From assembly GCA_963796275.1 (NCBI GenBank), contig CAWCKY010000001.1:1260662-1324661 (forward strand): a stretch of 64,000 nt of DNA, read 5' to 3'. Below, piece by piece: positions 46,422 through 63,894 of this stretch. Origin of the DNA: an uncultured Acidobacteriota bacterium (GTDB lineage Bacteria; Acidobacteriota; Blastocatellia; RBC074). Every line of letters starts with the position of its first letter. Positions within the stretch are counted from its first letter, which is position 1. The position numbers and the translations under genes were made by a program. The notes beneath the pieces are model-generated. The model was not told the DNA's origin. It did no database searches and saw nothing but the letters and a program-made list of their open reading frames with translations.

Positions 46422-46464
46422 ATGATAGGTTGATTCCGGAGGTGTGGCTGTCCAGTATTGGACA
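46422..46464 (-). promoter_or_regulatory. Operator TGTCC-N6-GGACA plus -10 (leftward promoter)
   Basis: TGTCCAATACTGGACA (46464-46449), 21 nt, TATCAT (46427-46422). Confidence 0.75.
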
Positions 46465-46562
46465 AGGTTGAAAAGAATTATACGAGGCCCGCAAACATGC
46501 GTGGTCGCGCTCGATTGCTTGGCCAGGGACGTCCCTCACGCATTCTTCACCACCTGCTGGTA

Positions 46563-46605
46563 TGTGCGATAGCGCATAGACAGCCCCTCGCGCGTCTGAT
46601 AGTTT
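46563..46605 (+). promoter_or_regulatory. Second-type Crp-like operator TGTGCG-N4-CGCATA plus extended -10 upstream of crp
   Basis: TGTGCGATAGCGCATA, 21 nt, (TGA)TAGTTT. Confidence 0.6.
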
Positions 46606-46726
46606 GGTGGCGGTTAATACTTCTTTGATAGTTCATCATTCGACATCGGGATCGGGCCGATTACCTTCTCCTTGTGCCGTCTGTTGGGTTCCCAAACATG
46701 ACAGCAACCAGATAAGGAGACTTTTC

Positions 46727-47449
46727 ATGCTTCGATTCACAAAAACACGCGAGCCGGTGGCCAACCAGTTGCTCGCCGCCCTGCCAACCAAAGAATATCA
46801 ACGTCTGCGGCCTTACTTAAAAGAGGTCACCTTACCTTTCGGTGAGATCATTTACGAATCCGGCGAGATCATCCGGCATGTCTATTTCCCGAATCAGGGC
46901 ATTGTTTCTCTGCTCTCCATGGTGGCAGAGCGCTCGACGCTCGAAGTTGGCATCGTGGGCGACGAAGGTATGGTCGGCATCTCGGTCTTCCTGGGGATGG
47001 GCGCTTCGCTCAACCAAGCGCTGGTGCAAGGCGCGGGCACGGCCATGAGGATGAAAGCTGAAGCAATGCGCAAACACGTCGGGCATGAGGGACCGTTACC
47101 GGACATGCTCCGCCGCTACGCGAACTCGTTACTGGCGCAGATTTCCCAGACGGCTGCCTGTAACCGCTTCCACAGGGTGGAGGCGCGCCTCGCCCGCTGG
47201 CTGCTCATGACGCACGACCGTCTCCGGTCAAATCAATTCCGGCTCACCCAGGAGTTCCTCTCCCACATGTTGGGCGTGCGTCGCGAGGGCGTCACCAATG
47301 CAGCCCGCGCCCTCCAGCAAGGGAAGCTGATCAGCTACGTCCGAGGCCAGATCACGATCCTCGACCGAGCAGGCTTGGAAGCGGGGTCTTGCGGATGTTA
47401 CGGGATTGTCAAATTGGATGTCTCGGCTAAGGCTGACAAAAGGCGGTAG
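46727..47449 (+). CDS. Crp/Fnr family transcriptional regulator (NQLLAALP type)
   Basis: AAGGAG RBS; VYFP..GIVSL, EVGIVGDEGMVG, AACNRFH, HTH LTQEFLSHMLGVRREGVT, C-terminal CGCY. Confidence 0.93.
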   Translation: MLRFTKTREPVANQLLAALPTKEYQRLRPYLKEVTLPFGEIIYESGEIIRHVYFPNQGIVSLLSMVAERSTLEVGIVGDEGMVGISVFLGMGASLNQALVQGAGTAMRMKAEAMRKHVGHEGPLPDMLRRYANSLLAQISQTAACNRFHRVEARLARWLLMTHDRLRSNQFRLTQEFLSHMLGVRREGVTNAARALQQGKLISYVRGQITILDRAGLEAGSCGCYGIVKLDVSAKADKRR

Positions 47450-47460
47450 GACTCTTTACC

Positions 47461-47712
47461 CTTGCAGGACACCGGGACACGTTTTTCAGAGGGCTGCGCA
47501 ATATTCGAGTAAATGATGAAATCACATTGACGACGTTAGGTGGATACTATCGCTATCGCGTGGACTCGACCAAAGTGGTCGATCCCGAGGAGACTGAAGT
47601 GTTGGATAATGACGATGACGATATACTCACTCTAGTGACCTGTTACCCGTTCAATTTTGTGGGCACCGCACCCAGGAGATTTATCGTCCGCGCGCACAGA
47701 GTTCTTGAATGA
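47461..47712 (+). pseudogene. Class D-like sortase, C-terminal catalytic fragment
   Basis: In-frame LAGHRDTFFRGL...LTLVTCYPF...RFIVRA; N-terminal anchor missing. Confidence 0.8.
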
Positions 47713-47821
47713 GATGAAAGCCATCTTGCCTTGGTTACGGCATCCCGCTGGCTACCTGGGCCACTGTAGGAGCAGGCGTAAAAAACAGCCGGCACCACCC
47801 CGCCACCTTTCTTTCCAAAAT

Positions 47822-47864
47822 TGTCCAATACTGGACGGCAATTTATCCCAGGGTGGCCGACCCT
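47822..47864 (+). promoter_or_regulatory. Operator plus -10
   Basis: TGTCCAATACTGGACG, 21 nt, GACCCT; then GGAGG and ATG at 47881. Confidence 0.7.
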
Positions 47865-47880
47865 TAGCGAGGAGGAATTA

Positions 47881-48306
47881 ATGGTAAACACAATTAAAAC
47901 GGGGACCATTCTAATCGCGGAGGGGGCCCTTTTATCGGAATCCTTATTATTCGAAAGCGAGCCTTATGTTTATGGATGGAGACTGGTCAAAAACCTCGAT
48001 AGTAAAGGCTTGGATCAAATCGTCAGCAATGCAGGGTGGAACTTTTTATACATCGCCGGTGTGATTGATACTAACGTCTTCGGTTCTGATGAGAAGAAGA
48101 CCACACGTAAGGCGATCAAGCAGGTCATCGCTAACCTGAAATCGAAGAACTTTAATTGCCTGGAAATTACGCAAGTGGCCGCGAAACGATCCATGGGCTT
48201 GCCCTATGTGAGCGTTTCCGCTCACTCGCGACATATTCAAAAAGGGCCCGCTCTTTCCGAGAACCAGGAAATTGGGGACGAGAAGTACGAAACCGCTGAA
48301 GAATAA
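47881..48306 (+). CDS. Hypothetical protein
   Basis: Strong RBS GAGGAGG; MVNTIKTGTILI...FNCLEITQV...HSRHIQ. Confidence 0.8.
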   Translation: MVNTIKTGTILIAEGALLSESLLFESEPYVYGWRLVKNLDSKGLDQIVSNAGWNFLYIAGVIDTNVFGSDEKKTTRKAIKQVIANLKSKNFNCLEITQVAAKRSMGLPYVSVSAHSRHIQKGPALSENQEIGDEKYETAEE

Positions 48307-48387
48307 ACCGTACTGTTTCAAGCCGACCAGCGCTGATGGAATAGGGAAAATGAGGCTGAACTGCCGGCTAAGAAAGAGATCGCCACT

Positions 48388-48486
48388 ATGAAAACACGAA
48401 TCGGAACTTTCCAGCTTAGCCTGATCTTTACGGGCCTCATCGTGCTTTTCGCGCTCCTTATGATGTGGCCGAACAAAGCATCGTAA
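48388..48486 (+). CDS. Possible 32-aa membrane peptide
   Basis: MKTRIGTFQLSLIFTGLIVLFALLMMWPNKAS*. Confidence 0.35.
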   Translation: MKTRIGTFQLSLIFTGLIVLFALLMMWPNKAS

Positions 48487-48540
48487 TTTCCACGATGCGC
48501 CGAAACAGGCTGCCGATAACCCCTGAGCACCAGCACCATT

Positions 48541-48672
48541 TCCGAAAAGGTCATAGCTTTGGTAGACCATCATGCATTGCCCTACTTGTGGAACAATAGC
48601 TTCAACGGATCAAAATTTCTGCCGATCTTGTGGCATGGAGTTATCGGTCATTTCTCAACTGGTCGCGAAACA
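48541..48672 (+). repeat. ~130-bp inverted repeat arm (partner 53093-53223) encoding a zinc-ribbon N-terminus
   Basis: MHCPTCGTIASTDQNFCRSCG is encoded on + here and on - at 53093-53223, nearly identical. Confidence 0.9.
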
Positions 48673-49039
48673 TCTCTCCGAGACCGATCCCGCCCTGTTG
48701 CCGGCGGAAAGCGATGCCAGTAAGCCACGCCGAAGGACTACACTGCTGGGTCAGCCTTGTAGCGACAGGGAACGATGTCTCATTGATCACGCGATAACCG
48801 CTCTGCAAAAGATCGAAGGGCGCGAGCGGACAGACATGCTGACCAGGGAAGAGCTCGAAGTTTTACGCGGCGCTCGTAGGCCGCAATTGTTGGAACCGGA
48901 TTGCCCACGTCTTGAAATTGACCTCCACCGGCAGGTTTTGTTCGTCATTGACCGTGTGGAGGCTACGCCGCGCATTGGCTCTGTTCGTAACATTAAGCAC
49001 GCCACCGTCACCTTTCTTTCCGGACCTGTCCAATATTAG
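48572..49039 (+). pseudogene. Chimeric remnant: zinc ribbon fused to a duplicated L,D-transpeptidase segment
   Basis: 48747-48976 is a near-copy of 54383-54613 (HAITALQKIEGRER...QVLFVID). Confidence 0.8.
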
Positions 49040-49069
49040 ACGGCAATTTATCCCGCACTGACCGAACAT
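49027..49069 (+). promoter_or_regulatory. Operator plus -10
   Basis: TGTCCAATATTAGACG, 21 nt, GAACAT. Confidence 0.7.
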
Positions 49070-49158
49070 CAGCATGGTACTTAAGAGCTTCAGCTCCTCT
49101 GGAATCATCCGGACTATCTGAAAGAAAAAGCTCACCTAGTAAGGATAAGGAGGAATCA

Positions 49159-49455
49159 ATGTCTATCCAAAATAGCATACGAAGACTTAGGGTAACTTCT
49201 ATTGGCTCATTTCCCCGCTTTCTCATTATGTTCATCCTGGTAGTGGTCGGGCCACTTGTGTTGCTTGTGATTGGCGGATACAACCCGAATATCCTAGGGC
49301 AGGCCAGCATAGTGTGGTCCATCCTGGCTATCGTCCTGCTGATCTCAATCTGTATCGGCGGCGGCTTCCTGATGTTTAGGCGCAAGTCCGATGCAGGCGA
49401 AAGGTCTCTTTATCAGCCCCGAAGTAATGCTGAAAGGGGCGGAGACGAACCGTGA
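49159..49455 (+). CDS. Small two-TM membrane protein
   Basis: AAGGAGG RBS; two hydrophobic helices. Confidence 0.75.
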   Translation: MSIQNSIRRLRVTSIGSFPRFLIMFILVVVGPLVLLVIGGYNPNILGQASIVWSILAIVLLISICIGGGFLMFRRKSDAGERSLYQPRSNAERGGDEP

Positions 49456-49529
49456 GCCGACCTGAATGCAATAAGCGAAGATGAAATAAGGGTTGATGAG
49501 TGAGGACGCTCGGTGAGGAACATCCTTTG

Positions 49530-49800
49530 TGTTCATGCCTAATGAGCCACGCGCGCAGGATCGCCACGCCGGCTGGGTCTAAAGAACTGAAGAATCCGCA
49601 TCCAGTGACAGAAACCAGTTTGGCCGAGGCGCGCGCGCATTTATCGAGCATTGCTCGATCTGTCACGGCATTAAAGGTCTCGGCGACACATTGATCGGCC
49701 GCAATGTCTACCCGAAAGTCCCTGACATGACCAAAGCGGAAACGCAGCAATTGAGCGATGGTGAACTTTACTACATCGTCACCAATGACATCAGGGATGA
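49530..49800 (+). pseudogene. Decayed cytochrome c
   Basis: KNPHPVTETSLAEARAH / EHCSICHG (CxxCH) / GRNVYPKVPDMT...LSDGELYYIVTN, split across frames. Confidence 0.75.
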
Positions 49801-49903
49801 CCATGACCCTAGCAACCTTTCTGACCCCGTCAAAATAGGTAATGCGATTGATTTGGCAAAAGGCCAGGCCATCGATTTTGGGTAAAGTTCCTCAGTTCGA
49901 GAT

Positions 49904-49946
49904 TGTCCAAAATTGGACAGCAATATATTCCAGGTTGGCCGATCAT
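49904..49946 (+). promoter_or_regulatory. Operator plus -10 upstream of a short ORF and groESL
   Basis: TGTCCAAAATTGGACA, 21 nt, GATCAT. Confidence 0.75.
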
Positions 49947-50282
49947 CAGTGTGGAGCTTAAGAATTTACTGGACGCAAGGAGTTATCAATATCTATTCAA
50001 GATATCCTGAAAGGAACGAGGTACATACCCTGTGCGAAATTTGAGCAGGACCCTCTATGTTTCCAGCGGGATCGAAAATCTAAAAGAGGAAGTGGCAGTT
50101 CTAGAAGCCGAGTTTACCGAGTTAGAGCAGAAGAATCTCCGTTCCCCCCCTCTGCTTCAGAAGCTAGGCGAGTACTTCGGTTTTGGAGCCGCTGGGAAGC
50201 TAGTTGGGCTCGGTTCAGAACTCAATTCCAAACGGGAACAATTGGATCGCTTCGAGGCTCAGCCTGAGATACTGAAAGTAAC
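49904..50282 (+). repeat. Diverged direct repeat (partner 56219-56558) with promoter and degenerate coiled-coil ORF
   Basis: Shared CTAAAAGAGGAAGTKGCAGTTCTAG...CTTCGGTTTTGGAGC...TTCGAGGCTCAG...CTGAAAGTA. Confidence 0.8.
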
Positions 50283-50347
50283 ACGCTAAGCACTATGGCG
50301 CCTCCTCACAATTTATCAGTAAATCAAAGGAATAAGGATAAAGAACT

Positions 50348-50689
50348 ATGGCTAACAACATCAGACCCCTGCATGATCGTGTGATCGTGCGTCGGATCAC
50401 AGAGGGCGAGCAGTCGCGCGGCGGGATACTCATCCCGGACACCGCTCGAGAGAGGCCGCAGGAAGGTGAAGTCGTAGCGGTCGGCGAAGGAAAATACCGC
50501 ACAGATGGCGCCAGACAATTGCTCGATGTCCGCGCGGGCGATCGCGTGCTATTCGGCAAGTACAGCGACTCCGAGATCAAGCTCGGTGGCGAAGTACTGT
50601 TGGTTATGCGCGAGGATGATATCTTCGGCATCGTCGAGCGCGCTGGCACCGTGACCAATTCCAGCGACGGCAAAAAACATGGCGAGTAG
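50348..50689 (+). CDS. groES: Co-chaperonin GroES
   Basis: [46 protein letters not shown]. Confidence 0.97.
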
Positions 50690-50754
50690 CCACCGAACAG
50701 TCTCGATGCTTTTACATTTACATCGATATTGAATGAAGAGAGAGAGAGGAAGAT

Positions 50755-52390
50755 ATGGCAAAACAAGTAATTTATGGTACGGAGTCGCGCGCTGCGATTT
50801 TGCGCGGCGTCAACCAACTCGCCGACACGGTCAAGATCACGCTCGGCCCGCAGGGGGCGCAACGTCGTCATTGACAAAAAATTCGGTTCACCGACGGTTA
50901 CCAAAGACGGCGTGACGGTTGCAAAAGAGATTGAGTTGAAAGACCCGCTTGAGAATATGGGCGCACAGATGGTGCGTGAGGTCGCCTCGAAGACTTCTGA
51001 GATGGCGGGTGACGGGACGACTACGGCGACCGTACTGGCCCAGGCGATCTTCCGCGAAGGCGTCAAAACCGTGGCGGCGGGTGCCAACCCGATGGCTTTG
51101 AAGCGTGGCATCGGTAAAGCCGTTGAACGCGCGATGAAAGAGATCAAGCGTCTCTCGAAGCCTGTCACAGGTGAGGCGATCACGCAGGTCGGCACGATTT
51201 CCGCCAACGGTGACGCGGCTATCGGCGGGATCATCGCGAAGGCGATGGAGAAGGTCGGCAAAGACGGTGTGATCACGGTCGAGGAATCGCAGACGATGGA
51301 GACATCACTGGAATTCGTCGAAGGGATGCAATTTGACCGTGGCTACGTGAGCCCTTATTTCGCCACCGATTCAGAGCGCATGGAAGCGGTCTTGGATGAT
51401 CCCCTGATTCTGCTTCACGAAAAGAAGATCAGCTCTATGCAGGACCTCTTGCCCCTGCTCGAGCAGGTCGCCCAGAAGCATCAGTCAATGTTGATCATCG
51501 CGGAAGACATCGAAGGCGAAGCGCTCGCGACATTAGTCGTCAACAAGCTGCGCGGCACGATAAATGTCGCCGCGGTGAAAGCGCCCGGGTTCGGTGATCG
51601 CCGCAAAGAGATGCTCGAAGACATCGCGATTCTGACGGGCGGGAAGGTGATCAGCGAGGACCTCGGTATGGAGCTTCGGAAGGTCAACCTGGAAGACCTG
51701 GGCCGCGCCAAGAAGGTGATGATCGACAAAGACAAGACGACCATCGTGGAAGGTCGCGGCAAGCGGGCCGAGATCGAAGGCCGCGTCAAAATATTGCGCG
51801 CGCGAACTGAAGACTCCACGTCTGACTACGATCGCGAGAAGTTACAGGAGCGATTGGCGAAACTGGTCGGCGGAGTGGCGGTGATCAAGGTCGGTGCAGC
51901 GACCGAGACGGAGATGAAGGAGAAGAAGGCGCGCGTCGAGGACGCGATGCACGCGACCCGCGCCGCCGTCGAGGAAGGCATTGTGCCGGGCGGTGGTGTG
52001 GCTTATGTTCGGGCAGCCGAGGTGCTGAGGAAATTCAAGATCTACAAAGATGGGGAAGGTGACGCTGACGAACAGATCGGGGTAAATATCGTCAGGCGGG
52101 CATTGGAAGAGCCGCTGCGGTTGATCGTGCAGAATGCCGGCAGGGAAGGCGCGGTGATAGTGGAGCGTGTCCGGGGCGAAAAGAACGAGAACGTTGGGTT
52201 CAACGCGGTGACAGAAGAGTTCGAAGACCTGGTTGAGGCGGGCGTCATTGATCCGACCAAGGTCACACGCACGGCGCTGCAGAACGCGGCGTCGATCGCG
52301 GGCTTGATGCTCACCACAGAGGTGATGATTTCAGAGATTCCTGAATTCGGTAAGGCTCAGGCGCTACCCGGCGCTGAAATGGGCTATTAA
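50755..52390 (+). CDS. groEL: Chaperonin GroEL (one-base frameshift near 50851)
   Basis: MAKQVIYG...TVKITLGP / [41 protein letters not shown]; no GGM tail. Confidence 0.96.
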
Positions 52391-52402
52391 CTGAGGTGAA
52401 CG

Positions 52403-52705
52403 ATGATTGAAAGTGACCTGGCGACACTGATTAGTAGCGTGTGCCAGGACATAGGTGAAATGAAAGGTATTGAATTTCACCCTCAAGCCACCTGGGGTAT
52501 GCAAGTGCCTGGGAGATGGGAATCAGACTACCGACTGAGGCGGCAAGGACATTCCACGGTGATTTTATCTCACTGGTTCAGTATGGACATGCTACTGCGC
52601 GAAGAAGTCATTTTGCCCTGGGCGTTCCCGCCCACACTGGAACAGAGTGAAAAATTCAAAAGCGACATCGGTGCTAAGATAGACCAGATGATGAAATGGC
52701 TATGA
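52403..52705 (+). CDS. Hypothetical protein
   Basis: GAGG RBS, ATG 12 nt after the groEL stop. Confidence 0.65.
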   Translation: MIESDLATLISSVCQDIGEMKGIEFHPQATWGMQVPGRWESDYRLRRQGHSTVILSHWFSMDMLLREEVILPWAFPPTLEQSEKFKSDIGAKIDQMMKWL

Positions 52706-52751
52706 CCACGCCTGATCGCACGGAAAAGAATATGACCGGGACAAATGGAAG

Positions 52752-52930
52752 ATGACAGCATCTGTTGACTCGAATGCTAAATCGAGAAAGGCCACCAAAG
52801 GAGCACGACGCCGGGTGGCTGCCGGTAAAGCGGCAACTTTCGACCGCAGCAAATATGCAACTCTGCTTTCCCGCGCTCTCCCAATGGTGATCACAACCAA
52901 GGCCGAATACGATCAGAAAATTACTGAAAA
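52752..52930 (+). pseudogene. HigA-like antitoxin N-terminal remnant
   Basis: FDRSKYATLLSRALPMVITTKAEYDQ; HTH part missing. Confidence 0.5.
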
Positions 52931-53092
52931 GACATCTATGGACGAAGCCTTCTCCTGTTTATCAACTCGACATTCATCTCTTGGCGAAGGTCGGTTACCA
53001 GTGGGTACTGCAAGGCCGCCTCAGACCGAAATCCAGGCTCCGAGAGAGAATCAGAAGCAGTATGGCCGCAGCTCTCAACCTAAGCGCGGGAG

Positions 53093-53223
53093 AGTTTCGC
53101 GACCAGTTGAGAAATGACCGATAACTCCGTGCCACAAGATCGGCAGAAATTTTGATCCGTTGAAGCTATTGTTCCACAAGTAGGGCAATGCATAATGGTC
53201 TCCCAAGCCATGACCTTTTCGGA
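53093..53223 (-). repeat. Inverted repeat arm 2 (zinc-ribbon gene fragment)
   Basis: Reverse complement of 48541-48672. Confidence 0.9.
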
Positions 53224-53437
53224 CGGCGCATTCCCGAATATCCGTGCCAGACTGGCTTCGTGCGCCGGTTCCATCGCAATGCGATTCTCAGTGGCCACAA
53301 TCACTCGAAGCCGCGGTGGAGCGTCATTGGTGAATGAGAAGGAGTAGAACCAGCGACAATGGAAAGTTTGCTGTGTCGAGCAGGTAAGCCGTCTGGTTAG
53401 AGCTCTCACCAAGCCTTAGGATAACTCTTTTCAACCT

Positions 53438-53481
53438 CGTCCAATATTGAACGGAAAACCCACCCAAAGTCAGCCTATCAT
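53438..53481 (+). promoter_or_regulatory. Operator plus -10
   Basis: CGTCCAATATTGAACG, 22 nt, TATCAT. Confidence 0.65.
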
Positions 53482-53642
53482 TGGCAAATGTAATCAGGAG
53501 TCGGAGTCGGCGATTGTCCAGCTAACATTCTGGCGACTAGACCATATTGGCGATGACTATTACCGGAATGCGCCGGGGACCCCGCGAAGTGCGAGTCGAG
53601 TCTGATCTGAAGGCGAAACATCAATTTCACTCAAGGAGAATT

Positions 53643-54092
53643 ATGCAACCGACAACAAAGGGAAAACTCGAATCAGGTAAACCCACAGAAGTAAACCAAG
53701 GCAAGGGACAAGGCGCCGCCAGTTCTCCTGTCGAGCAAATCAGCCATTTTGCTGGTGACGAATCACAGTTGGCTGTTAGTGGGAACTCGGAAGCGGATCG
53801 CGCCGAGGTCGTTGATCAGACCAAACAGGTAATCACCGGTACTTACGAAACGGCGAGCAAGACGGTAAAAGACACTTATGACAAAACCAGCCGGACTGTG
53901 AATGAGACCTATGGCCGGGTAAAGAGTTACAGTCGTGAGAACCCCGGCACCGTGACACTGATTGCCTTTGGCGCCGGGATCGGAGTCGCCATGTTGCTCT
54001 TCGGCAGCCGTAACCCGCGCAGCAGAGCCGGACGCATTGTGCCGCCCATGATGGATGCGCTCAAGAATGTGGTTTCAACCCTTCTCCGCTAG
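53643..54092 (+). CDS. DUF883/ElaB/YqjD-like tail-anchored stress protein
   Basis: AAGGAG RBS; helical repeats then RENPGTVTLIAFGAGIGVAMLL. Confidence 0.72.
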   Translation: MQPTTKGKLESGKPTEVNQGKGQGAASSPVEQISHFAGDESQLAVSGNSEADRAEVVDQTKQVITGTYETASKTVKDTYDKTSRTVNETYGRVKSYSRENPGTVTLIAFGAGIGVAMLLFGSRNPRSRAGRIVPPMMDALKNVVSTLLR

Positions 54093-54145
54093 GAGCGACT
54101 TAACTGAAGGCGGGCAGAGTCCTTACGAAAACCTTGAGCAGATAG

Positions 54146-55069
54146 ATGAAACAAACAATCATACATGCGGTTTTCTTGGTGTTGACGATCACACTGTTTA
54201 AGCCCGATGTGATGACTGCTACTAGCTGGCCACAAATGCAGACTCGAGTACCTGATAAGCCATCACCGCAGCGGTCACAAAATCCACAAACCGCGCCGGC
54301 CAAGAAAAGAGGCCCAGTGGCGAAGGGTTTATCTGACGCTGAAATAAGAGAAGCCAGAAAGCTTCTGGATCAGCTTGGCTATTGGGTCAGCCTTGAAGCG
54401 ACAGGGAATGATGTCTCGTTGCATCACGCGATAACCGCTCTGCAAAAGATCGAAGGACGAGAGCGGACAGGCATGCTGACCAGGGAAGAGCTCGAAGTTT
54501 TACGCGGCGCTCGAAGGCCGCAATTATTGGAATCGGATTGCCCACGTCTTGAAATTGACCTCGACCGGCAGGTTTTGTTTGTCATTGACTGCGTGGGGGC
54601 AGCGCCGCGCATTTTATCGATCTCATCGGGTTCCGATAAGCTGTTTACCGAAGGTGGTGTGACGCGACGAGCCATTACGCCGACCGGCAGATTCGAGGTT
54701 CATCGCAAGATCCAGGGCTGGCGAAAAAGCCCGCTTGGATTGCTTTACTATCCCAACTACATTTACGCAGGGATAGCCATTCACGGCAATCCCTCGGTTC
54801 CACCTTATCCGGACAGTCATGGTCGCATTCGCATCCCGATGTTCGCTGCCCAAGAATTCAGTGCAATTGCAAAGATCGGTATGGTCGTGATCGTTTACGA
54901 TAACGACCCTCTCACCGAGACTGAGCGCCGCAGCCTGTATCGCGTCAGGGGGAAAAGCGCCGACCTGCGACGAACTGAGGAGGACCGTGAACGAAACGAA
55001 AGTTGTCAGTTTTCAGCGACAATCATCCAACTGAGAACTAAAAACTGGAAACTGAAAAGTATTTTCTGA
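54146..55069 (+). CDS. Secreted peptidoglycan-binding + L,D-transpeptidase (YkuD) protein; catalytic Cys replaced by Arg
   Basis: IDLDRQVL, ISSG, TPTGRF, GIAIHG, SHGRIRI (normally SHGCIR). Confidence 0.85.
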   Translation: MKQTIIHAVFLVLTITLFKPDVMTATSWPQMQTRVPDKPSPQRSQNPQTAPAKKRGPVAKGLSDAEIREARKLLDQLGYWVSLEATGNDVSLHHAITALQKIEGRERTGMLTREELEVLRGARRPQLLESDCPRLEIDLDRQVLFVIDCVGAAPRILSISSGSDKLFTEGGVTRRAITPTGRFEVHRKIQGWRKSPLGLLYYPNYIYAGIAIHGNPSVPPYPDSHGRIRIPMFAAQEFSAIAKIGMVVIVYDNDPLTETERRSLYRVRGKSADLRRTEEDRERNESCQFSATIIQLRTKNWKLKSIF

Positions 55070-55163
55070 TCCTATGTGCTTGCGTTCGGGCTATCGCCTG
55101 CGAGACGCGGTGCAGTCGCGAAAATAAATGATAATCTGATCAAAACAATCATCCGCATGACCA

Positions 55164-55724
55164 ATGGCTGAAAACAGAACCGAGACAGCAAAGAAGTTTC
55201 TGGCAAAAGAGCTCGAAAAGCTCTCTGAGCAGGAGCGTCAGGTAGTCGAGCGATTCATCAGCCGCGGCCGGGTAGCGCGCAACGTGGCGCGCGAGTTCGA
55301 GGAGCAAATGACGTTTGGGCAACGGCTCGCGGATCGCTTCGCTCGGATCGTCGGCTCGTGGCGATTTATCGTCGTTCAAAGCGCCATGCTTGCCGTGTGG
55401 ATTATGGTGAATATCACCGCGTATGTTTATCACTGGGACCCGTACCCGTTTATCCTGCTCAACCTCGCGCTGTCATTCCAGGCTGCATATGCCGCGCCGA
55501 TCATTATGATGAGCCAGAACCGCCAATCCGAAAAAGACCACCTGCAAGCGAAGAACGACTATGAGGTCAATCTGAAAGCCGAGCTGGAGATTATGCAACT
55601 CCACGAAAAATTCAATGAGCTGCGGGACTCTACCTTGATACATCTCGTGCGGATGCAACAGCGGCAGATCGAAATGTTGGAGCAGCTTGTCTCGGTAGAC
55701 CGCAAGCGCGAGCCTAAACCTTAA
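55164..55724 (+). CDS. DUF1003 membrane protein
   Basis: TFGQRLADRFARIVGSWRFI, DPYPFILLNLALS, APIIMMSQNRQ. Confidence 0.92.
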   Translation: MAENRTETAKKFLAKELEKLSEQERQVVERFISRGRVARNVAREFEEQMTFGQRLADRFARIVGSWRFIVVQSAMLAVWIMVNITAYVYHWDPYPFILLNLALSFQAAYAAPIIMMSQNRQSEKDHLQAKNDYEVNLKAELEIMQLHEKFNELRDSTLIHLVRMQQRQIEMLEQLVSVDRKREPKP

Positions 55725-55845
55725 TCTGATGCCGCCCATAAAGAGAGCAATCCCAACGACGCCATCGTTACCCACCAGACCCATCTCGGCGGTTGCGCCG
55801 TCGGTCATGGTATAGAGTAAAGAGACAAGGCAGGTTGGTTGGGAA
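55725..55845 (-). pseudogene. Crp-family gene fragment
   Basis: CLVSLLYTMTDGATAEMGLVGNDGVVGIALFMGG. Confidence 0.7.
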
Positions 55846-55899
55846 ATAGAGATGCTCCATCTGTACATTCGATTCGTAAACGATAACGCCGAGCGCGAA

Positions 55900-56067
55900 G
55901 GATGTCGCGCATCGTGGGCGTGGTTCTAACGGGGTACCTGGATGACGGTACGGCGGGACTCCGAGCTGTGAAGGATCGCGGGGGAATAGCCATCGTGCAG
56001 GATCCGGTGGAACCGATTGCCCCCTCCATGCCGCACAGCGTGCTGCAAAACGTAGATGTGGATTAGA
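55900..56067 (+). pseudogene. CheB-type methylesterase fragment
   Basis: [33 protein letters not shown]...SMP. Confidence 0.75.
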
Positions 56068-56218
56068 TTGCGCTGCTACTGAGGCAACTAGCCCCTCCCC
56101 TTAGTAGAAGAGTACTCAGCATCTCACTCAAATCCGCAGCTTCTGATTTTTCAAACTACATTTTTGTGACCCTTAGCGCATGAAATTTCTCAGGCATCGG
56201 GTGTACCGTCTTTTTGAT

Positions 56219-56261
56219 CGTCCAATATTGGACAGTAATTTATTCCGGGTTGGCTGATCAT
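56219..56261 (+). promoter_or_regulatory. Operator plus -10
   Basis: CGTCCAATATTGGACA, 21 nt, GATCAT. Confidence 0.75.
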
Positions 56262-56634
56262 CAGTGTGGAATCTGAGAATTTAAAAGGAGCGTGATACGT
56301 GCCCAACGCAAAGATTGAACAAGACCCTCCGTGGTTCCACCGCAGGAGCGAAGAACTAAAAGAGGAAGTTGCAGTTCTAGCAGCTCAACTTGCCGAGTTA
56401 GTGCAAAAGGAATCTCCGTTCCTCCGCTATTATTTGTAAGCTAGGTGAGTTCTTCGGTTTTGGAGCTGCTGGGAAGCTGGATTGGCTCGATTCAAGCTCA
56501 ATTTCAAACAGGTAGAATTGGATCGGTTCGAGGCTCAGACTGAGATGCTGAAAGTAGCAAATGAACTCTGTGATACGGTACCTGAGCTCCCATCTAACTA
56601 CAATACCGCTCGCAATCTCTTGAAAGGCAAAAAA

Positions 56635-57015
56635 ATGGCCGAAACCCATTTCACTGACATCATCATCGTTGGTAATAGCATATCTAAATTACCGCGCAGA
56701 GAAGGCAACAACAAAGAAGGCAAAGACCAATTCATTATTACGTTTAGTCTCTCAAGCAGTCCTAGCGGACTCTGGATCGAGACTTTCAATCGGGTGTGGA
56801 AAAAACACGGCGAGCAGACATACTCATTACAATCGCCAATTGTGAAAGATAACCATATTCAAATCATCTGCCCTCTAGACGACCAGCTTCAAGGTCATTT
56901 AGAAGACCTCAAGCGAGAGGCGGCTACAACTAATCAGGTGTACCGGGAACAGCTTCGGGTAACAGACGAAGGGAGAAGCAATAATGATGAGATTCTCCAA
57001 AAACTCAGGTTTTGA
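56635..57015 (+). CDS. Hypothetical protein
   Basis: MAETHFTDIIIVG...LSSSPSGLWIETF...LQKLRF. Confidence 0.65.
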   Translation: MAETHFTDIIIVGNSISKLPRREGNNKEGKDQFIITFSLSSSPSGLWIETFNRVWKKHGEQTYSLQSPIVKDNHIQIICPLDDQLQGHLEDLKREAATTNQVYREQLRVTDEGRSNNDEILQKLRF

Positions 57016-57733
57016 TCGCCGGTCAGCGACTTGCCTCAGGCACATGGTAGGGGTATTTTGCTTGGCGCTGGCTGTGAGCACGGTAGCGCAGGGGCAGGTC
57101 GGGAACAATCTCCAGGATGGGACCAAGCAATCAGGAAAGGCGGCACACGTTTTTCGCGAGATTATGGACATGGCGGACAAATCGATTCCCCTGGATTTAT
57201 TGGATGGCGCTGCGTGTGTCGCGGTCTTCCCTTCGTTCTTCAATGCAGAGGGTGTTTTTGGCGGACGTGGAGGTCGCGGTGTGGTTAGTTGTCGCACGGC
57301 GAAGGCTTGGAGCGCCCCGGCCTTTTTCAATCTGGGTGGCGGCACCTCCGGTCTACAGGTCGGCGCCCAGTCAACGGATTTCGTGATGCTGTTCATGAAT
57401 GAAGATGGGTTGAACAATCTCCTGTCAGGCCAGTTCACAGTAGGTGAAGACGTTTCAGTGGCTGCCGGACCAATCGCCCAGCAGGCCGCGGCTTCGACTG
57501 ATCTGAAGCTCAATGCGCATATCCTCTCCTACTCGCGCAGCAAAGGGTTTTTCGCTGGGCTTGAACTCAAGGGCGTGGTTATTAAGCTGGACAAAGATGA
57601 GATGCGAGACGTGTATGGCGAAGGCGTGACGGCCAAAGAGGTGTTGACGAAGAACAAGGTCACTGCGCCCGTTGCAGTGTGGGCTTTCCCGATTACACTT
57701 TGGTACTACTCTTCTCGCAAAGTTGTAGAGTAA
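56984..57733 (+). CDS. Secreted Ysc84/SYLF lipid-binding domain protein
   Basis: IPLDLL, GGRGGRGVVSCR, WSAPAF, GLQVGAQSTD, SYSRSKGFFAG. Confidence 0.9.
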   Translation: MMRFSKNSGFDRRSATCLRHMVGVFCLALAVSTVAQGQVGNNLQDGTKQSGKAAHVFREIMDMADKSIPLDLLDGAACVAVFPSFFNAEGVFGGRGGRGVVSCRTAKAWSAPAFFNLGGGTSGLQVGAQSTDFVMLFMNEDGLNNLLSGQFTVGEDVSVAAGPIAQQAAASTDLKLNAHILSYSRSKGFFAGLELKGVVIKLDKDEMRDVYGEGVTAKEVLTKNKVTAPVAVWAFPITLWYYSSRKVVE

Positions 57734-57748
57734 AACTAAGGAATAGAG

Positions 57749-58129
57749 ATGAAAATCATCGAGCGTACATTAAACGATATCACAGTTCTGGATCTCGACG
57801 GCAACCTCGCTCTAGAAGGAAATGTACAGTTTAGAAAACAGGTCAGTGCCACTATCGATGCGGGGGCCCGTAAGTTGATCGTCAACTTTGCGAGAGTCCC
57901 ATACATGGACAGCAGTGGGCTGGGTGAGCTCATCTCCTGTTATAGAACTTTGCAGGGGGTGAGCGGACATCTCAAGCTGCTCCATCTCAGTGATCGTTTG
58001 CAAACTCTGCTAGCCATCACGAAGCTCACCAATATATTTGAGACATTCGACTCCGAACCGGCGGCAGTTTCCAGCTTCACCCGAGTTGGCGCGAGTCGAG
58101 CCGAGGGAATCGGCCGAGTTGGCCGATGA
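57749..58129 (+). CDS. STAS-domain anti-sigma factor antagonist
   Basis: VLDLDG, YMDSSGLGEL, ITKLTNIFETF. Confidence 0.92.
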   Translation: MKIIERTLNDITVLDLDGNLALEGNVQFRKQVSATIDAGARKLIVNFARVPYMDSSGLGELISCYRTLQGVSGHLKLLHLSDRLQTLLAITKLTNIFETFDSEPAAVSSFTRVGASRAEGIGRVGR

Positions 58130-58168
58130 CAGCGGACAAGTAATGAGTAGTAGCGCGGAGACACGATC

Positions 58169-58747
58169 ATGATCCAAGAGATTCCTCGAGCTGAACGGTT
58201 CAAACAACGATTGCGCGATTCGTTGATGAACGAGACCCTCAATTCGCGCGCCATTACGATCGCGAAGCACGATCACGTCTACACTTGTGGAGACCAGGAC
58301 GAGATGGTCTACTTCATTGAAAACGGACAGATCAAACTGCAGATACTCGCGCCTGAAGGTATAGAGTACCTGCTGGCCATCCATACGGCGGGAGATATTT
58401 TTGGCGAGCCGTGCCTCTCCGGGTTAGGCTCACGTCTGGAAACAGCGACCGCCATGGAAGAAACGATCTTAAAACAAATACCTTGTTCCAAGTTCTTTGC
58501 GTGGTTAAGCCATGATGCGCTGTTTGAGAGCTTCGTGCAGTACCTGGCGGTGCGGGTTGCCGACCAACAGCAGGTCATCGCCAACCTGGTGATGGTTGAT
58601 AGCAAACAGCGACTGGGCAAGACGCTGCTGCAACTGGCGCGCAAACTCGGCTGGAGGGACCGCAGCGCATCCGCACCGAACTGAGGATTTCGCATTCTCA
58701 TTATCAAAGAAAAGAAGCTTTCTGCTTACCTGGTTCAAATTGCCTAG
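58169..58747 (+). pseudogene. Crp/Fnr paralog lacking the HTH (copy of 60640-61320)
   Basis: Near-identical N-domain; GATTTCGCAT joins directly to TCTCATTATCAAAGAAAAG, deleting ~100 nt that encode EELSEMVGTTRPRIS. Confidence 0.85.
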
Positions 58748-58794
58748 ATCGGGCTGCGTCTGTCTGTGGACCTCGCGATATTTCTTGTCAACAT

Positions 58795-58837
58795 TGTCAT
58801 GTATTGGACAGAAACCCTTTCCGAGTCAGCCTATCAT
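58795..58837 (+). promoter_or_regulatory. Operator plus -10
   Basis: TGTCATGTATTGGACA, 21 nt, TATCAT. Confidence 0.7.
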
Positions 58838-58920
58838 TCAAATGCAAATTGGAGTCAGGTGAAGGCAACAGCGCACCCGACCCGGAGGATGTAATCAAAA
58901 ACCTAAATTCGGAGGTGACT

Positions 58921-59070
58921 ATGCTTTGGATAATCTTCGCTGTACTTGTTGTTCTGTGGTTGTTTGGTCTGGTCGGCGGCATCGGCGGTTCATTGATTCA
59001 CGCGTTGCTTGCGATTGCGTTGGTAGTGTTGCTCTACAAACTGTTCGGCGATCGCCGGACGGTGAGTTGA
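58921..59070 (+). CDS. Small lmo0937/DUF5670-like membrane protein
   Basis: GGAGG RBS; MLWIIFAVLVVLWLFGLVGGIGGSLIHALLAIALVV. Confidence 0.85.
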   Translation: MLWIIFAVLVVLWLFGLVGGIGGSLIHALLAIALVVLLYKLFGDRRTVS

Positions 59071-59877
59071 GCGGGCACGCCAACACTGCGTTATGGCTCA
59101 ACATTCGGTTGAGCCACGACGCGCGCTCGATCGCTAGAAGAAGGATGAAGAGAAGATTACATCTTGCCCGCTGCTGAGCGTCGAAGTGAAACAAGGTTGC
59201 ACTGATTGAGCGGGCGCAAAAAACGGCAAGCACGATTCGGTTAAGGATATCCTTTTCAATTTTTACAACGGAGAGCTTTTCCGCATGGTGGTCACTTATG
59301 ATCCGGATATAAGAGTGTTAGGGCACAGACGTCATTGATTGATATCACTTAAGCTGTCGTTTCTAGGAATATCGTCCAAAGCCATTGTCGGGACAGCAAC
59401 AACACATAGCCCTCCCTCAAATAGCCTCCCCCTACCAGACTGACAGGTACAAATTGCCTGTCGGTCTGGTAGAATTGATTATCTTGACCATCACTCATCC
59501 AGAAGCTACTTTCGAACGTATCCCGCGCCCCATCGAAAATAATCAAACTATAAGCGCGTTGGAGCACAGACGGAGATATTGGTAGAGCTTATGGTGATCG
59601 TTCTTGCAATATTGTCCTGTTCTCAACTATTCACCAGTCTTGAGTTGGGAGTTGAGCGGAGAAGTGGCTAACAGATGTCTCGACACTCTCCACTTAAAGT
59701 TGGCATTCGCCAGTATAGTGGGGAATAGCCGTCTGGATTTATCTACGGCCATCAGTCTCCGCCGATGGCTTGGAAACTATAACGAACGATTCCCGACTCA
59801 AGAGTCTTGTTAAATAATAGTCTTGTTAAATAATAGGTTTACCTTTGGGGGGGTGGACCAATCAAGTAGGATGAAGG

Positions 59878-59965
59878 TGACAACGTAGGGGCCGAACTGT
59901 ATATCTGCCTGATAGCTGTATTATCAACCAAGGTACGCACGCTGGCGCACCCTACGTTGTATCAC
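59878..59965. repeat. GTAG-type REP-like inverted pair
   Basis: ACAACGTAGGG ... CCCTACGTTGT. Confidence 0.5.
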
Positions 59966-60057
59966 TCGATTCAGCTTCCCTTTTTTATAATCAACTACCT
60001 GAAACTACAACGAACCGCTTGCGCGAGCACTCGTTCGGCACCGGCCAAGGAGAATAG

Positions 60058-60516
60058 ATGAAGCTTCCTCCCCAAGATATTCTGCTGGTTGAAGGCCATG
60101 ACGATAGCAGAGAGATGGTGTGTTGGTATCTAACCCAAATAGGTTATCAAGTGAGAGCCGCCTCCACTTGCGTTGCGAGCTTAGCTCAGGTGAGCGTAGG
60201 GCGATTCAATCTCTATTTTCTCGGCGATGACTGCTCAGATGGAACTACCCTTGATCTCTGCCAACAAATTCGGGCGCTCGATGCGGACACGCCCATCCTT
60301 TTTTGTTCGGCCTCGGCCTTTCACGCTGACCGCGAGCGAGGGATGAGGGCCGGCGCGCAAGCCTATCTCACCAAGCCACTTGAGTGGGACGAGTTAGAGC
60401 AGGCCATCGTGCGGTTGATCGGCGAGGTCCGGACCGTGGCAGTGGTAACTCCGCTGGCCCCGGGAGCGCACGAAGGAAGGCACGTTAGACACCGTCTCGG
60501 GCGCACCAGGGTTTAA
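60058..60516 (+). CDS. Single-domain response regulator receiver (atypical)
   Basis: ILLVEGHDD, TPILFCSA, AGAQAYLTKP; LYFLGD where LYLLD is expected. Confidence 0.85.
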   Translation: MKLPPQDILLVEGHDDSREMVCWYLTQIGYQVRAASTCVASLAQVSVGRFNLYFLGDDCSDGTTLDLCQQIRALDADTPILFCSASAFHADRERGMRAGAQAYLTKPLEWDELEQAIVRLIGEVRTVAVVTPLAPGAHEGRHVRHRLGRTRV

Positions 60517-60639
60517 TAGTTCTTCACAATTAATGCGACGTCCTACAAGAAAGTGGCTATGACAGGCAGAGGTCGTGAGGCCGCTCCGGCAAGCAGGCCG
60601 CCGCCTTCATCACCATGAGCATCGAAAAGAGACAAGATC

Positions 60640-61320
60640 ATGATTCAAGAGACTCCTCAAGCGGAACAGTTCAAACAACAAATGCGTGATTCGCTGCGGC
60701 AGGAGACCCTCAATTCGCGCGCCATCACGATCGCCAAACACGATCACGTCTACACCTGTGGCGATCAAGACGAGATGGTCTATTTCATTGAAAGCGGACA
60801 GATCAAACTGCTGATGCTCTCGCCTGAAGGCAGAGAGTGCCTGCTGGCCATCCATACGGCGGGAGATATATTTGGCGAGCTGTGCCTGTCCGGATTAGGC
60901 GCGCGGTTGGAAACAGCGACCGCCATGGAAGAAACGATCTTAAAACAAATCCCTTGCCCTAAGTTCTTTGCGCGGTTGAGCCGCGACGCGCTGTTTGAGG
61001 GCTTCGTGCAGTACCTGGCAGTGCGGATTGCCGACCAACAGCAGGTCATCGCCAACCTGGTGACGGTGGATAGCGAACAGCGACTGGGTAAGACGCTGTT
61101 ACGGCTTGCGCGCACGCTCGGCAAGAAAGATCCGCGTAGTATCCGCATCGAGCTGAAGATTTCGCATGAAGAGCTGTCGGAGATGGTTGGGACGACGCGG
61201 CCACGGATAAGTCTGTTTATGCAGCGATTTCGGAACCTGGGGCTGATTGAGACGAGCGAAGAGCATTTTCTGATCATCAAAGAAAAGAAGCTAATTGCTT
61301 ACCTGGCTCAGATCGCATAG
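60640..61320 (+). CDS. Crp/Fnr family transcriptional regulator (RPRIS recognition helix)
   Basis: YFIESGQIKL, GDIFGE, SEQRLGKTLL, HTH ISHEELSEMVGTTRPRISLFM. Confidence 0.94.
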   Translation: MIQETPQAEQFKQQMRDSLRQETLNSRAITIAKHDHVYTCGDQDEMVYFIESGQIKLLMLSPEGRECLLAIHTAGDIFGELCLSGLGARLETATAMEETILKQIPCPKFFARLSRDALFEGFVQYLAVRIADQQQVIANLVTVDSEQRLGKTLLRLARTLGKKDPRSIRIELKISHEELSEMVGTTRPRISLFMQRFRNLGLIETSEEHFLIIKEKKLIAYLAQIA

Positions 61321-61364
61321 CACGGAGAGCTGTCTGTGGGACTCGCTATAATTCTTTACAACCT

Positions 61365-61407
61365 GGTCCAATATTGGACGGAACTCTTTCCCGCGACAGC
61401 CTATTAT
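61365..61407 (+). promoter_or_regulatory. Operator plus -10
   Basis: GGTCCAATATTGGACG, 21 nt, TATTAT. Confidence 0.72.
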
Positions 61408-61487
61408 TCAAATGTCATCCGGGTCAAAAAACCATTAGCGCACTTGACCCGGAGCATGCGGGCAAGAACCGAATTTGGAGATGAAGT

Positions 61488-61634
61488 ATGCTTTGGACAA
61501 TTTCCGTTGTTTTTCTCGTTCTTTGGTTGTTGAGCGTGGTAGGCGGCGGCGGCTCGTTGATTCAGGCGCTGCTTGTGATTGCAGCGGTGGTGTTGATCTA
61601 CAAGATGCTCAGCAGGCGTCGGGCGGCGAGCTAA
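61488..61634 (+). CDS. Second lmo0937/DUF5670-like small membrane protein (not in the ORF track)
   Basis: GGAG RBS; MLWTISVVFLVLWLLSVVGGGGSLIQALLVIAAVVLIYKMLSRRRAAS*. Confidence 0.8.
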   Translation: MLWTISVVFLVLWLLSVVGGGGSLIQALLVIAAVVLIYKMLSRRRAAS

Positions 61635-61985
61635 GCGAGCACGCGACCGCCCCATTGGCAGGTCAGGAGTATGCTCTTGGGCGCGCTAACCAAAGATATT
61701 AAGCAGTGCAGGGTTATGTACGGAGGAATAGGATGCTGGAGATATCCAGAGGCTGGTGTGGGAAGTGGTGCAACTCCGTATAGGAGTGGGATCCAATCTC
61801 CCAAAGATAGTATCCCACTCCTTCCCAGGAATGAGTTAGTAGCGTAGTCATTCTCTTCCCCCCCATTACCTTAGTAACTAATCGGGCTTTATTTTCGCAA
61901 TTATGTGGCTAAGCCGGGTCTTTGTGGCTTGGTTCGAAGTCAATCTGTAGCTACTGAAGCTACTGAAGCTACTGAGGAAAGTATC

Positions 61986-62909: not shown

Positions 62910-62959
62910 CCAGGTGGCGCCCGCTCACTCCGGTTTCTTATTGGAAAGGTAGGGTTAAA

Positions 62960-63400: not shown

Positions 63401-63551
63401 CCGGGGGGTGAGATTCGAGTGAGACTGACCGTGAGGGTGGCGCTGCTGAAAAAACTAAATACCGGCTACAAAACACAACCTATACACACTCTTACATTCA
63501 TCCCTGCTGGTATAGGGTTGCCGCTTTCGGCCGGAGAAACCGGAGTAGAAC

Positions 63552-63842: not shown

Positions 63843-63894
63843 GGATTTACCAGTCAAATGGTTATTGAAAACTGCGGTAGTTTAAGGAGAAAGT

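Follow-up and report, generated by a model that had tools for sequence, protein, structure and literature searches.

A palindromic box with the 14-mer core GTCCAATATTGGAC occurs eight times in a gene island of the DNA stretch analysed here (64,000 nucleotides, hereafter the window), which is the last 64 kb of contig C1 in the assembly of an uncultured Acidobacteriota bacterium (G000; 9.46 Mb, 7 contigs, 54% G+C). Judging from the sequence, the eight palindromes are real promoter elements, and our candidate for the protein binding them is the product of crpB, a Crp/Fnr-family gene of the same island. It is probable, in our view, that crpB acts as a class II activator on a multi-copy stress module which the Acidobacteriota and a Binatia/'delta' lineage have in common through transfer. 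We infer the binding of crpB to the box, the activation, the start sites and the signal from sequence comparisons.

The original prediction had placed eight palindromes in this island, and all of them are present (Table 1) and non-random by shuffling of the core. The palindrome covers 14-16 bp, of which the 14-mer is the informative part. Allowing at most 3 mismatches, the 14-mer matches the window 11 times against 2.26 expected, and none of 100 shuffles reached 11. Eight of these matches are the predicted sites (with 0, 0, 1, 1, 1, 1, 1 and 3 mismatches), while the other three, at 17358, 42193 and 44189, have 3 mismatches each, lie outside the island and look like chance matches. The exact pattern TGTCC-N6-GGACA is found at 46449 and 49904, i.e. 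twice against 0.07 expected, with 0 of 100 shuffles reaching two. The loose form of this 10-base pattern (at most 2 mismatches) is not enriched in the window, with 24 matches against 24.4 expected; seven of the eight sites are among those 24 and the eighth (53438) has 3 mismatches. The case rests on the 14-mer. The predicted spacing and hexamers are exact, as each 16-mer is followed after 21 nt (22 at 53438) by a hexamer whose second base is always A and whose sixth is always T. The prediction had also cautioned that some sites are duplicated cassettes, and indeed they fall into two paralogous classes with a common spacer sequence, hence the eight are not independent of each other.

The box belongs to a conserved promoter cassette of ~75 bp, with a T-tract near -60, the box, G-33 and then A-11 and T-7. 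Its parts come in the order of a T-rich block, the box, a short conserved stretch and a class-specific sequence, which is gGCcGATCATCAG in class A and cAGCCTATCATT in class B. The A of a TAnnnT -10 element follows 30.5 bp downstream of the dyad centre, which is thereby placed at about -41.5 from the predicted start, and the distance between the box and the -10 element fits the class II spacing in all eight window sites. We examined this geometry at 122 sites from other genomes, using the box as the sole anchor, the strand of crpB as the orientation and no profile. A-11 and T-7 are at the exact offset in 92 of the 122 sites and within ±1 in 106, compared with 13 of 122 on the opposite strand and a background of 5.3%; other frequent bases are G-33 (106 sites), T-58 (105) and C-22 (84). 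Across 91 non-redundant sites the most informative positions are those of the T-tract (-63 to -56) and the box (-48 to -35) together with G-33, A-31, C-22, G-15, A-11 and T-7. The positions between them are free, and the centre of the box, AATATT, is itself conserved. A consensus scan for canonical sigma-70 promoters picks up none of the eight window promoters and overlaps no box, and the -35 window of the cassettes reads CaGcAA, which is not a canonical -35. The predicted 5-6-5 class II geometry is supported by a spacing conserved across genomes and by the lack of a canonical -35.

The same geometry has to be weighed against the possibility that crpB binds the box as a repressor over the -35 region, keeping the stress genes off until a signal arrives. 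A dyad at -48 to -35 would also block the polymerase, nothing in the sequence fixes the sign, and the geometry data fit either one. However, no -35 match is found at 16-18 nt spacing (no consensus overlaps the eight boxes and the window reads CaGcAA), which is a hallmark of activator-dependent promoters, and the fixed phase to the -10 element (92/122) and the upstream T-tract are needed for class II activation but not for repression. We consider the repressor quite unlikely.

The crpB protein belongs to the CRP/FNR superfamily, within which it fits no named subfamily. Both of its domains are recognized by Pfam, i.e. cNMP_binding with 51.8 bits (cut-off 27.5) and HTH_Crp_2 with 51.7 bits (cut-off 27). 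An AlphaFold2 model built on 73 sequences has a predicted local distance difference test score (pLDDT) of 93.8 and a long central helix at residues 119-142 (single chain); it supersedes a model from 9 sequences, which was unusable with pLDDT 50.8. Using Foldseek, this model is similar to GlxR and M. tuberculosis Crp with TM scores of 0.81-0.85 at a sequence identity of 22-26%, and the same two proteins are also the best profile matches among solved structures (E 1.9e-42). No NCBIfam equivalog is reached, the best being LdrP with 57 bits against a cut-off of 300. The score for the cyclic AMP (cAMP) receptor protein model PRK11753 is 53.2 bits (cut-off 266), for the NCBIfam Fnr model 52.8 bits (cut-off 228) and for the NtcA model TIGR03697 54.4 bits (cut-off 244.95), so that crpB belongs to none of the three. 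The hallmark of FNR is an N-terminal cysteine cluster plus one central Cys, with an E--SR recognition helix; crpB has no Cys before residue 40 and its helix reads TTRPRIS. This recognition-helix region is nearly invariant, with one varying position, in the orthologues of both host lineages.

The signal sensed by crpB may differ from that of the cAMP-binding proteins. The phosphate-binding loop keeps its Arg but reads R-L-E-T-A, with an invariant Glu, and the Ser/Thr after the loop Arg is replaced by Leu, so cAMP is not assured as the ligand. In the wider family (32-61% identity), C67 is present in 66 of 73 sequences and C82, which lies in the ligand loop GELC, in 52 of 73. Cys 40, 67 and 82 and the Cys of IPCP are kept in most of the close orthologues, two of them being Ser in the copies of another genome of the phylum, G089. 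The conservation of C67 and C82 hints at a redox or metal signal.

The box and crpB occur together in G000 and in other genomes. Using a cassette profile of 104 nt we found 46 cassettes in G000, 45 of them in eight clusters, which we call islands: 8 in the window, 6 at C1:2.7-17 kb, 4 at C1:97-105 kb, 7 at C1:157-176 kb, 4 on C2, 5 at the end of C3, 6 at C4:504-524 kb and 5 at the start of C6, with 1 alone on C7. Every island except that of C6, where no crpB was found, holds crpB copies. For a forward sample, with one genome per species, the best 80 of 232 stretches with crpB relatives gave 77 loci in ~60 metagenome-assembled genome (MAG) assemblies other than G000, whose crpB orthologues are 80-89% identical and sit among the same cassettes. 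These 77 loci have 123 boxes (≤2 mismatches) in 681 kb, i.e. 0.18 per kb compared with 0.006 per kb for the whole of G000. Chosen for crpB alone, 66 of the 77 loci match the cassette profile (129 matches), and 123 of the 127 matches listed are co-directional with crpB. A box lies at most 300 nt past the crpB stop codon in 40 of the 81 crpB copies with enough flank, mostly at 16-62 nt. Among 201 sampled genomes of the phylum, crpB (E≤1e-60) is encoded in two, G000 and G089; boxes at ≤1 mismatch number 34 in G000 and 0-2 in each of the other 200.

For the reverse direction, metagenome contigs were scanned for the bare 14-mer, which gave at least 120 stretches, and 79 loci were analysed. By the profile 34 of these 79 are true cassettes, and crpB (≥65% identity) is found in the flank (≤4 kb) of 10 of the 34, whereas it is absent from the flanks of all 45 non-cassette loci. 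Among the open reading frame (ORF) families of the metagenome cassette loci, that of the crpB sensor domain is the most widespread, occurring in 12 of 33 (one locus shared a contig with another and was dropped). The link drawn by the original prediction between the motif and an RPRIS-type Crp is thus supported by their co-occurrence in G000 and in other genomes and by the 200 other sampled genomes of the phylum, which are not enriched in the box.

Several points weigh against this reading. The cassette profile was built from G000's own sites. Eleven of the 77 crpB loci have no box at ≤2 mismatches, and 24 of the 34 metagenome cassettes have no crpB in their short flank. In G089 there are two crpB homologues (helix TTRPRVS, 75-77% identical), but this genome is not enriched in the box, with 20 matches against 38 in the control, and there is no cassette or variant dyad beside the two genes. 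The cassettes are paralogous and partly co-inherited with crpB, hence the co-occurrences are not independent events. A hairpin (59432-59472) and a sigma-70-like site (59807-59834) lie in the window between cassette 7 and crpB with the receiver gene before it, so that the window crpB need not be autoregulated. Lastly, activation and repression are not separable from sequence.

A different regulator might read the box, i.e. crpA (the second Crp-family gene of the window), an unlinked factor or an alternative sigma factor under STAS partner-switching, crpB being then just a passenger or one of the target genes. The islands do encode STAS proteins and a receiver domain, a crpA-like gene at C1:169045 has an upstream box-like site, and G089 has crpB homologues without boxes. 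But the crpB sensor is the most widespread family (12/33) in loci found by the box alone, and the 14 largest ORF clusters, which are unannotated, showed no further conspicuous DNA-binding family. A perfect dyad whose centre is conserved is expected for a dimeric helix-turn-helix (HTH) protein and not for a sigma factor, and the 21-22 nt between TGGAC and the -10 element are too long for a -35/-10 pair. As to crpA, it is only 19% identical to crpB and has the RE-type, CRP-like helix VRREGVT, and because of this helix it is the less likely binder, as the original prediction had assumed. Another regulator seems improbable to us.

For crpB as the activator, we suggest the following mechanism. GTCCAATATTGGAC would be the operator of a dimeric crpB, which when bound at -41.5 would recruit the RNA polymerase in the manner of E. 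coli CRP at class II promoters. At such promoters the alpha C-terminal domain binds an upstream position, and the T-tract (-63 to -56) would be its contact here. The family-invariant Arg187, equivalent to CRP Arg180, would contact the G/C pair at G-48 and C-35, both of which are invariant in the box. In CRP a Glu reads the second G of TGTGA; its place would be occupied by Pro188 in crpB, and the new Arg189 could read the GG opposite to CC. This assignment of residues to bases is a suggestion made by analogy with the CRP-DNA contacts. The targets would be small stress and envelope genes, i.e. the DUF5670 peptides, GroESL, Ysc84-STAS, the L,D-transpeptidase and DUF1003, and in other genomes also CsbD, CarD-like proteins, superoxide dismutase (SOD), FtsH, a fatty-acid desaturase and crpB itself.

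The genes behind the boxes were surveyed at 46 promoters of G000 and 127 promoters of the other loci. The most frequent first gene encodes a DUF5670 peptide (23 promoters from 17 sources), followed by the 238-aa coiled-coil family (10 from 6), CarD-like proteins (9 from 9), Ysc84 (8 from 8), the 141-aa family (7 from 6), CsbD (6 from 6) and crpB itself (3 from 2). Also found behind the box are Fe/Mn SOD, FtsH, a fatty-acid desaturase, PAS-GGDEF, a histidine kinase, OmpA-domain proteins, fasciclin, DUF899, UPF0182 and a PRC-barrel protein. The cassettes lie at gene starts with Shine-Dalgarno sequences downstream. One further cluster of first genes, at 19 promoters, was discarded as spurious, because it comes from a frame that overlaps the DUF5670 gene.

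In the window, the first genes are those of the 141-aa protein, the 98-aa membrane protein and two DUF5670 peptides, together with the three gene groups behind cassettes 4, 5 and 6 (Table 1). The identities of the groESL and SYLF-STAS genes, which had been predicted as targets, are confirmed by profile matches, namely Cpn10 and Cpn60 in Pfam (with 796 bits for the GroEL equivalog) and Ysc84 and STAS; the 85-aa ORF, groES and groEL presumably form one operon, given their order. The two DUF5670 peptides, 58921-59070 and 61488-61634, score 40.9 and 41.8 bits for NF033488 (cut-off 30) and 41.3 and 36.2 bits for PF18919 (cut-off 23.5), respectively. The trio of repeat-rich protein, YkuD and DUF1003 recurs in the paralogous island at C1:14.4-17 kb. 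Two assignments of the original prediction were not supported. The region 53643-54092, which it labelled DUF883-like, has no Pfam match and reaches no NCBIfam cut-off, and site 46449 has no recognisable gene behind it. This cassette is homologous to the promoter plus leader of DUF899 at C6:9482-9653 only as far as ~46301, which we take as the left edge of the island, cassette 1 being a truncated one.

Table 1. Cassettes, genes and HTH-less crpB copies with their coordinates (in the window unless a contig is given).
Feature	Position	Strand	Remarks
Cassette 1, orphan, class B	46422..46464	-	Box 46449-46464, -10 TATCAT 46427-46422; no recognisable gene behind
crpA, second Crp-family gene	46727..47449	+	ORF may start at 46604; Pfam HTH_Crp_2; helix GVRREGVT
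Cassette 2, class A	47822..47864	+	Box 47822-47837, -10 GACCCT 47859-47864
141-aa protein, first gene after cassette 2	47881..48306	+	Shine-Dalgarno GGAGGA, leader only ~10 nt; no Pfam or NCBIfam match
Cassette 3, class A	49027..49069	+	Box 49027-49042, -10 GAACAT from 49064; overlaps stop codon of ORF 48572-49039 (Zn-ribbon membrane protein)
98-aa predicted membrane protein, first gene after cassette 3	49159..49455	+	Weak transmembrane-family matches only
Cassette 4, class A	49904..49946	+	Box 49904-49919, -10 GATCAT from 49941
Genes behind cassette 4	50032..52390	+	85-aa coiled-coil ORF 50032-50289, groES 50348-50689, groEL 50774-52390
Cassette 5, class B	53438..53481	+	Box 53438-53453, -10 TATCAT from 53476, spacer 1 nt longer
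Genes behind cassette 5	53547..55724	+	149-181-aa repeat-rich protein 53547/53643-54092, YkuD L,D-transpeptidase 54146-55069, DUF1003 55164-55724
Cassette 6, class A	56219..56261	+	Box 56219-56234, -10 GATCAT from 56256
Genes behind cassette 6	56299..58129	+	238-aa coiled-coil family in two frames (56299-56439, 56545-57015), Ysc84/SYLF 56984-57733, STAS 57749-58129
HTH-less crpB paralogue, 171 aa	58169..58684	+	Pfam cNMP_binding only
Cassette 7, class B	58795..58837	+	Box 58795-58810 (3 mismatches in core), -10 TATCAT from 58832
49-aa lmo0937/DUF5670 membrane peptide, behind cassette 7	58921..59070	+	Pfam and NCBIfam
Single-domain response-regulator receiver	60058..60516	+	Directly upstream of crpB; Pfam Response_reg
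crpB, 226-aa Crp/Fnr-family regulator, candidate box binder	60640..61320	+	Pfam cNMP_binding and HTH_Crp_2; helix GTTRPRISLF
Cassette 8, class B	61365..61407	+	Box 61365-61380, -10 TATTAT from 61402; 45 nt past crpB stop codon
48-aa lmo0937/DUF5670 membrane peptide, behind cassette 8	61488..61634	+	Pfam and NCBIfam
HTH-less crpB copy	C1:100608-101183		
HTH-less crpB copy	C1:5165-5740		
HTH-less crpB copy	C1:172728-173304		
HTH-less crpB copy	C4:519967-520543		

The 238-aa family, represented by the intact paralogue L079:8010-8726 and by 56545-57015 of the window, has a sub-threshold similarity to DUF3577 and to the STY4534 replication family of integrative and conjugative elements (ICE), with E ~1e-2 to 1e-3. 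Its window member is frame-broken (56299-57015), which may be an assembly error, because rpoB (C6:1271403-1274543, L089) is also split over several frames with stops between them. The assembly thus carries indel errors, and single frameshifts, such as those in the 238-aa gene and in the groEL N-terminus, are no evidence of pseudogenes.

Several other features of the window were noted. A 61-aa ORF just upstream of cassette 2 (47527-47712) matches only the last 57 positions of a sortase domain and is a gene remnant or a frame error. The hairpin between the DUF5670 gene and the pair of receiver gene and crpB has a perfect 18-bp stem and a 5-nt loop (-31.3 kcal/mol as RNA), is unique in the genome and lacks a T-tail; it could act as a terminator or as a site of processing, and the 66-aa ORF covering it is probably not a gene. 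The pairing of receiver and crpB recurs at C1:3556-4149. The crpA-like gene at C1:169045 (L081:2479-3342) has a box-like site GTTCAATACTGGAC (2 mismatches) upstream, which faces away towards a DUF4440 gene, and crpA in the window has the same layout; crpA itself may be part of the regulon.

G000 encodes ten crpB-like copies, all inside the box clusters, five of them full-length and five ending near residue 165. The full-length copies are followed by a box shortly past the stop codon and are under strong purifying selection, with a ratio of non-synonymous to synonymous substitutions (omega) of 0.03-0.15 at a synonymous divergence (dS) of 0.15-0.78; these values indicate old paralogues and not assembly duplicates. 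The two ends of C1 (window 60058-64000 and C1:1-4200) have the same gene order in mirrored orientation, i.e. receiver, crpB, DUF5670 and a ricin-type lectin. The two crpB proteins are 99% identical there with dS ~0.2, and given this dS the two ends are diverged inverted copies and not an assembly artefact.

The five short copies have lost the HTH (Table 1). Four of the five have the same 1-nt deletion and three the same ~101-nt deletion; in the window copy, 58169-58684, a 1-nt and a 101-nt deletion together remove the HTH. Their sensor domain stays open, with omega of 0.33-0.74 among them, so these copies appear relaxed and not clearly dead. They could be modulators, acting as heterodimer poison or ligand sink, or slowly decaying copies. 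On the metagenome contig L108 (1195-2856) we found a single ORF with a crpB-type sensor (residues 1-183, ~75% identical), a PAS domain and a C-terminal region, which could be a chimeric assembly. Relatives of its C-terminal region in G000 are limited to scattered 26-35% matches, and going by motifs we presume it to be of the PP2C/SpoIIE type.

The module is found in two host lineages, as we read the data. The RpoB fragment of G000 aligns contiguously with those of G201 (an Acidobacteriota chromosome) and G205 (labelled Heliomicrobium) at 73% identity, an insertion included, whereas the alignments with G202 ('delta proteobacterium', 3.6-Mb contig), G203 (Binatia) and G204 (Limnocylindrales) are in two blocks of 58-82% without the insertion. 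In comparison, crpB is 81-88% identical to its orthologues in G201-G204 and 87% to that of G205. In a quick tree of 90 crpB copies, one clade with a support of 98 in the Shimodaira-Hasegawa-like approximate likelihood ratio test (SH-aLRT) has all 40 Binatia/'delta' rows plus four rows labelled Acidobacteriota and two 'other' rows, and the remaining rows are labelled Acidobacteriota or Heliomicrobium/Heliobacteriaceae. The six odd rows are all on contigs of 1.7-5.8 kb. Taken together, the RpoB pattern, the crpB identities and the tree suggest to us that there are two host lineages, with one or more transfers between phyla. As to the labels Verrucomicrobia and Limnocylindrales, they may be binning errors, since the contigs are short and one row is identical to a 'delta' row.

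Horizontal transfer is the simplest explanation for the sharing of the crpB module, which has thus probably been transferred. The composition of the islands (51-55% G+C against 54% for the genome) gives no sign of a recent transfer. The left flank of the island, compared with three relatives (G016, G089 and G101), has scattered DNA matches of 64-84% and no synteny. Several paralogous islands are bordered by fragments of insertion sequence (IS) and other mobile genes, namely IS240-type, IS66 and IS21 (IstB) transposases, a phage integrase and a TnpB-like protein (L079:11053-11571, L084:1835-3762 and L083:4757-5663). In a plasmid collection we found only distant crpB homologues (≤46% identity). 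The one at 46%, on the Streptomyces sp. plasmid NZ_CP109590.1 (L214, 181597-182280), lies among polyketide-type biosynthesis genes, next to an LnmK-family acyltransferase/decarboxylase, an HMG-CoA synthase and carrier proteins; relatives of crpB may thus also be regulators of biosynthetic gene clusters.

That the ~75-bp element is just a mobile or recombining repeat, like a miniature inverted-repeat transposable element (MITE) or spread by duplication, with a palindrome that reflects transposition or recombination and has no regulatory role, is very unlikely in our view. In its favour, there are 46 copies in one genome in two classes with common spacer and leader, one copy is an orphan, and IS-element and integrase fragments lie near several islands, but the conservation in the 91 sites is concentrated at promoter positions with free positions between them, the copies stand at gene starts with a Shine-Dalgarno sequence downstream, their orientation follows the downstream genes (all but four of the 127 listed matches being co-directional with crpB), and no terminal inverted repeats or target duplications were seen.

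Going beyond the class II activator, we speculate, more doubtfully, that the module is a portable 'plug-in' stress regulon. It would have crossed phyla with regulator, operator and spacer almost unchanged and then multiplied in the genome, its sensor domain being re-used in a free-standing form and its signal, sensed through C67/C82, being redox or a metal and no cyclic nucleotide. The re-use of the sensor is suggested by the five HTH-less paralogues, with deletions in part common, and by the metagenome sensor-PAS fusion. The free-standing copies might tune or poison crpB, either as partners in heterodimers or through competition for the ligand.

Known systems share parts of this arrangement. 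E. coli CRP binds the box TGTGA-N6-TCACA centred at -41.5 of the class II promoter galP1, and it has the family, the fold, the 5-6-5 dyad, the distance to the -10 element and the lack of a usable -35 in common with crpB. The crpB half-site is however GTCCA and not GTGA, the centre AATATT of its box is conserved, its helix has R-P-R where CRP has R-E-T, and its putative targets are stress genes whereas those of CRP are catabolic genes. The closest solved relatives by profile and fold are actinobacterial GlxR (C. glutamicum, 4cyd/3r6s) and M. tuberculosis Crp (3h3u/3i54); the helix of GlxR reads RETV whereas the crpB family has R-[SP]-R-[VI]. Cyanobacterial NtcA promoters have GTA-N8-TAC and a TAN3T -10 element. 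NtcA, an activator of the Crp family, resembles the putative activator crpB in that its dyad stands in place of the -35 and at a constant distance from a minimal TAnnnT -10 element, but its box is another one and its physiology is nitrogen control.

The gene content overlaps with the SigB regulon of Firmicutes, since CsbD and lmo0937-family peptides are found behind the crpB box. For Listeria, PMC2813243 counts lmo0937 as sigma-B-dependent, with a 54-fold change, and PMC3225968 describes it as PrfA-regulated. Unlike SigB, the module here has a putative Crp-type activator at sigma-70-like -10 elements and no alternative sigma factor, and it is accessory and multi-copy. The original prediction of an equivalent of the SigB/RpoS general stress response goes too far: since only 2 of the 201 genomes sampled from the phylum encode crpB, this is an accessory module and not the general stress response of the phylum.

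The motif had been proposed to be undescribed, and our literature search turned up no report of it: the 14-mer GTCCAATATTGGAC was not found, nor were TGTCC and GGACA together with a CRP palindrome, and by term searches the main text of the CRP/FNR surveys PMC3590769 and PMC8510549 has no GTCC or GGAC string. The mechanism, a Crp-family activator at -41.5, is that of the textbooks; the DNA specificity and the regulon, as predicted here, are new, with no new principle involved.

The Acidobacteriota and the Binatia are abundant and mostly uncultured soil bacteria, and there has been almost no study of how they regulate their stress genes. A pair of regulator and operator readable from sequence gives a list of putatively co-regulated survival genes, many of which have no assigned function, e.g. 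the 238-aa and 141-aa families, and one protein with one 14-bp site makes for a simple biochemical test. The cassette together with crpB is also a marker for a stress module that is apparently moving between phyla and amplifying within genomes.

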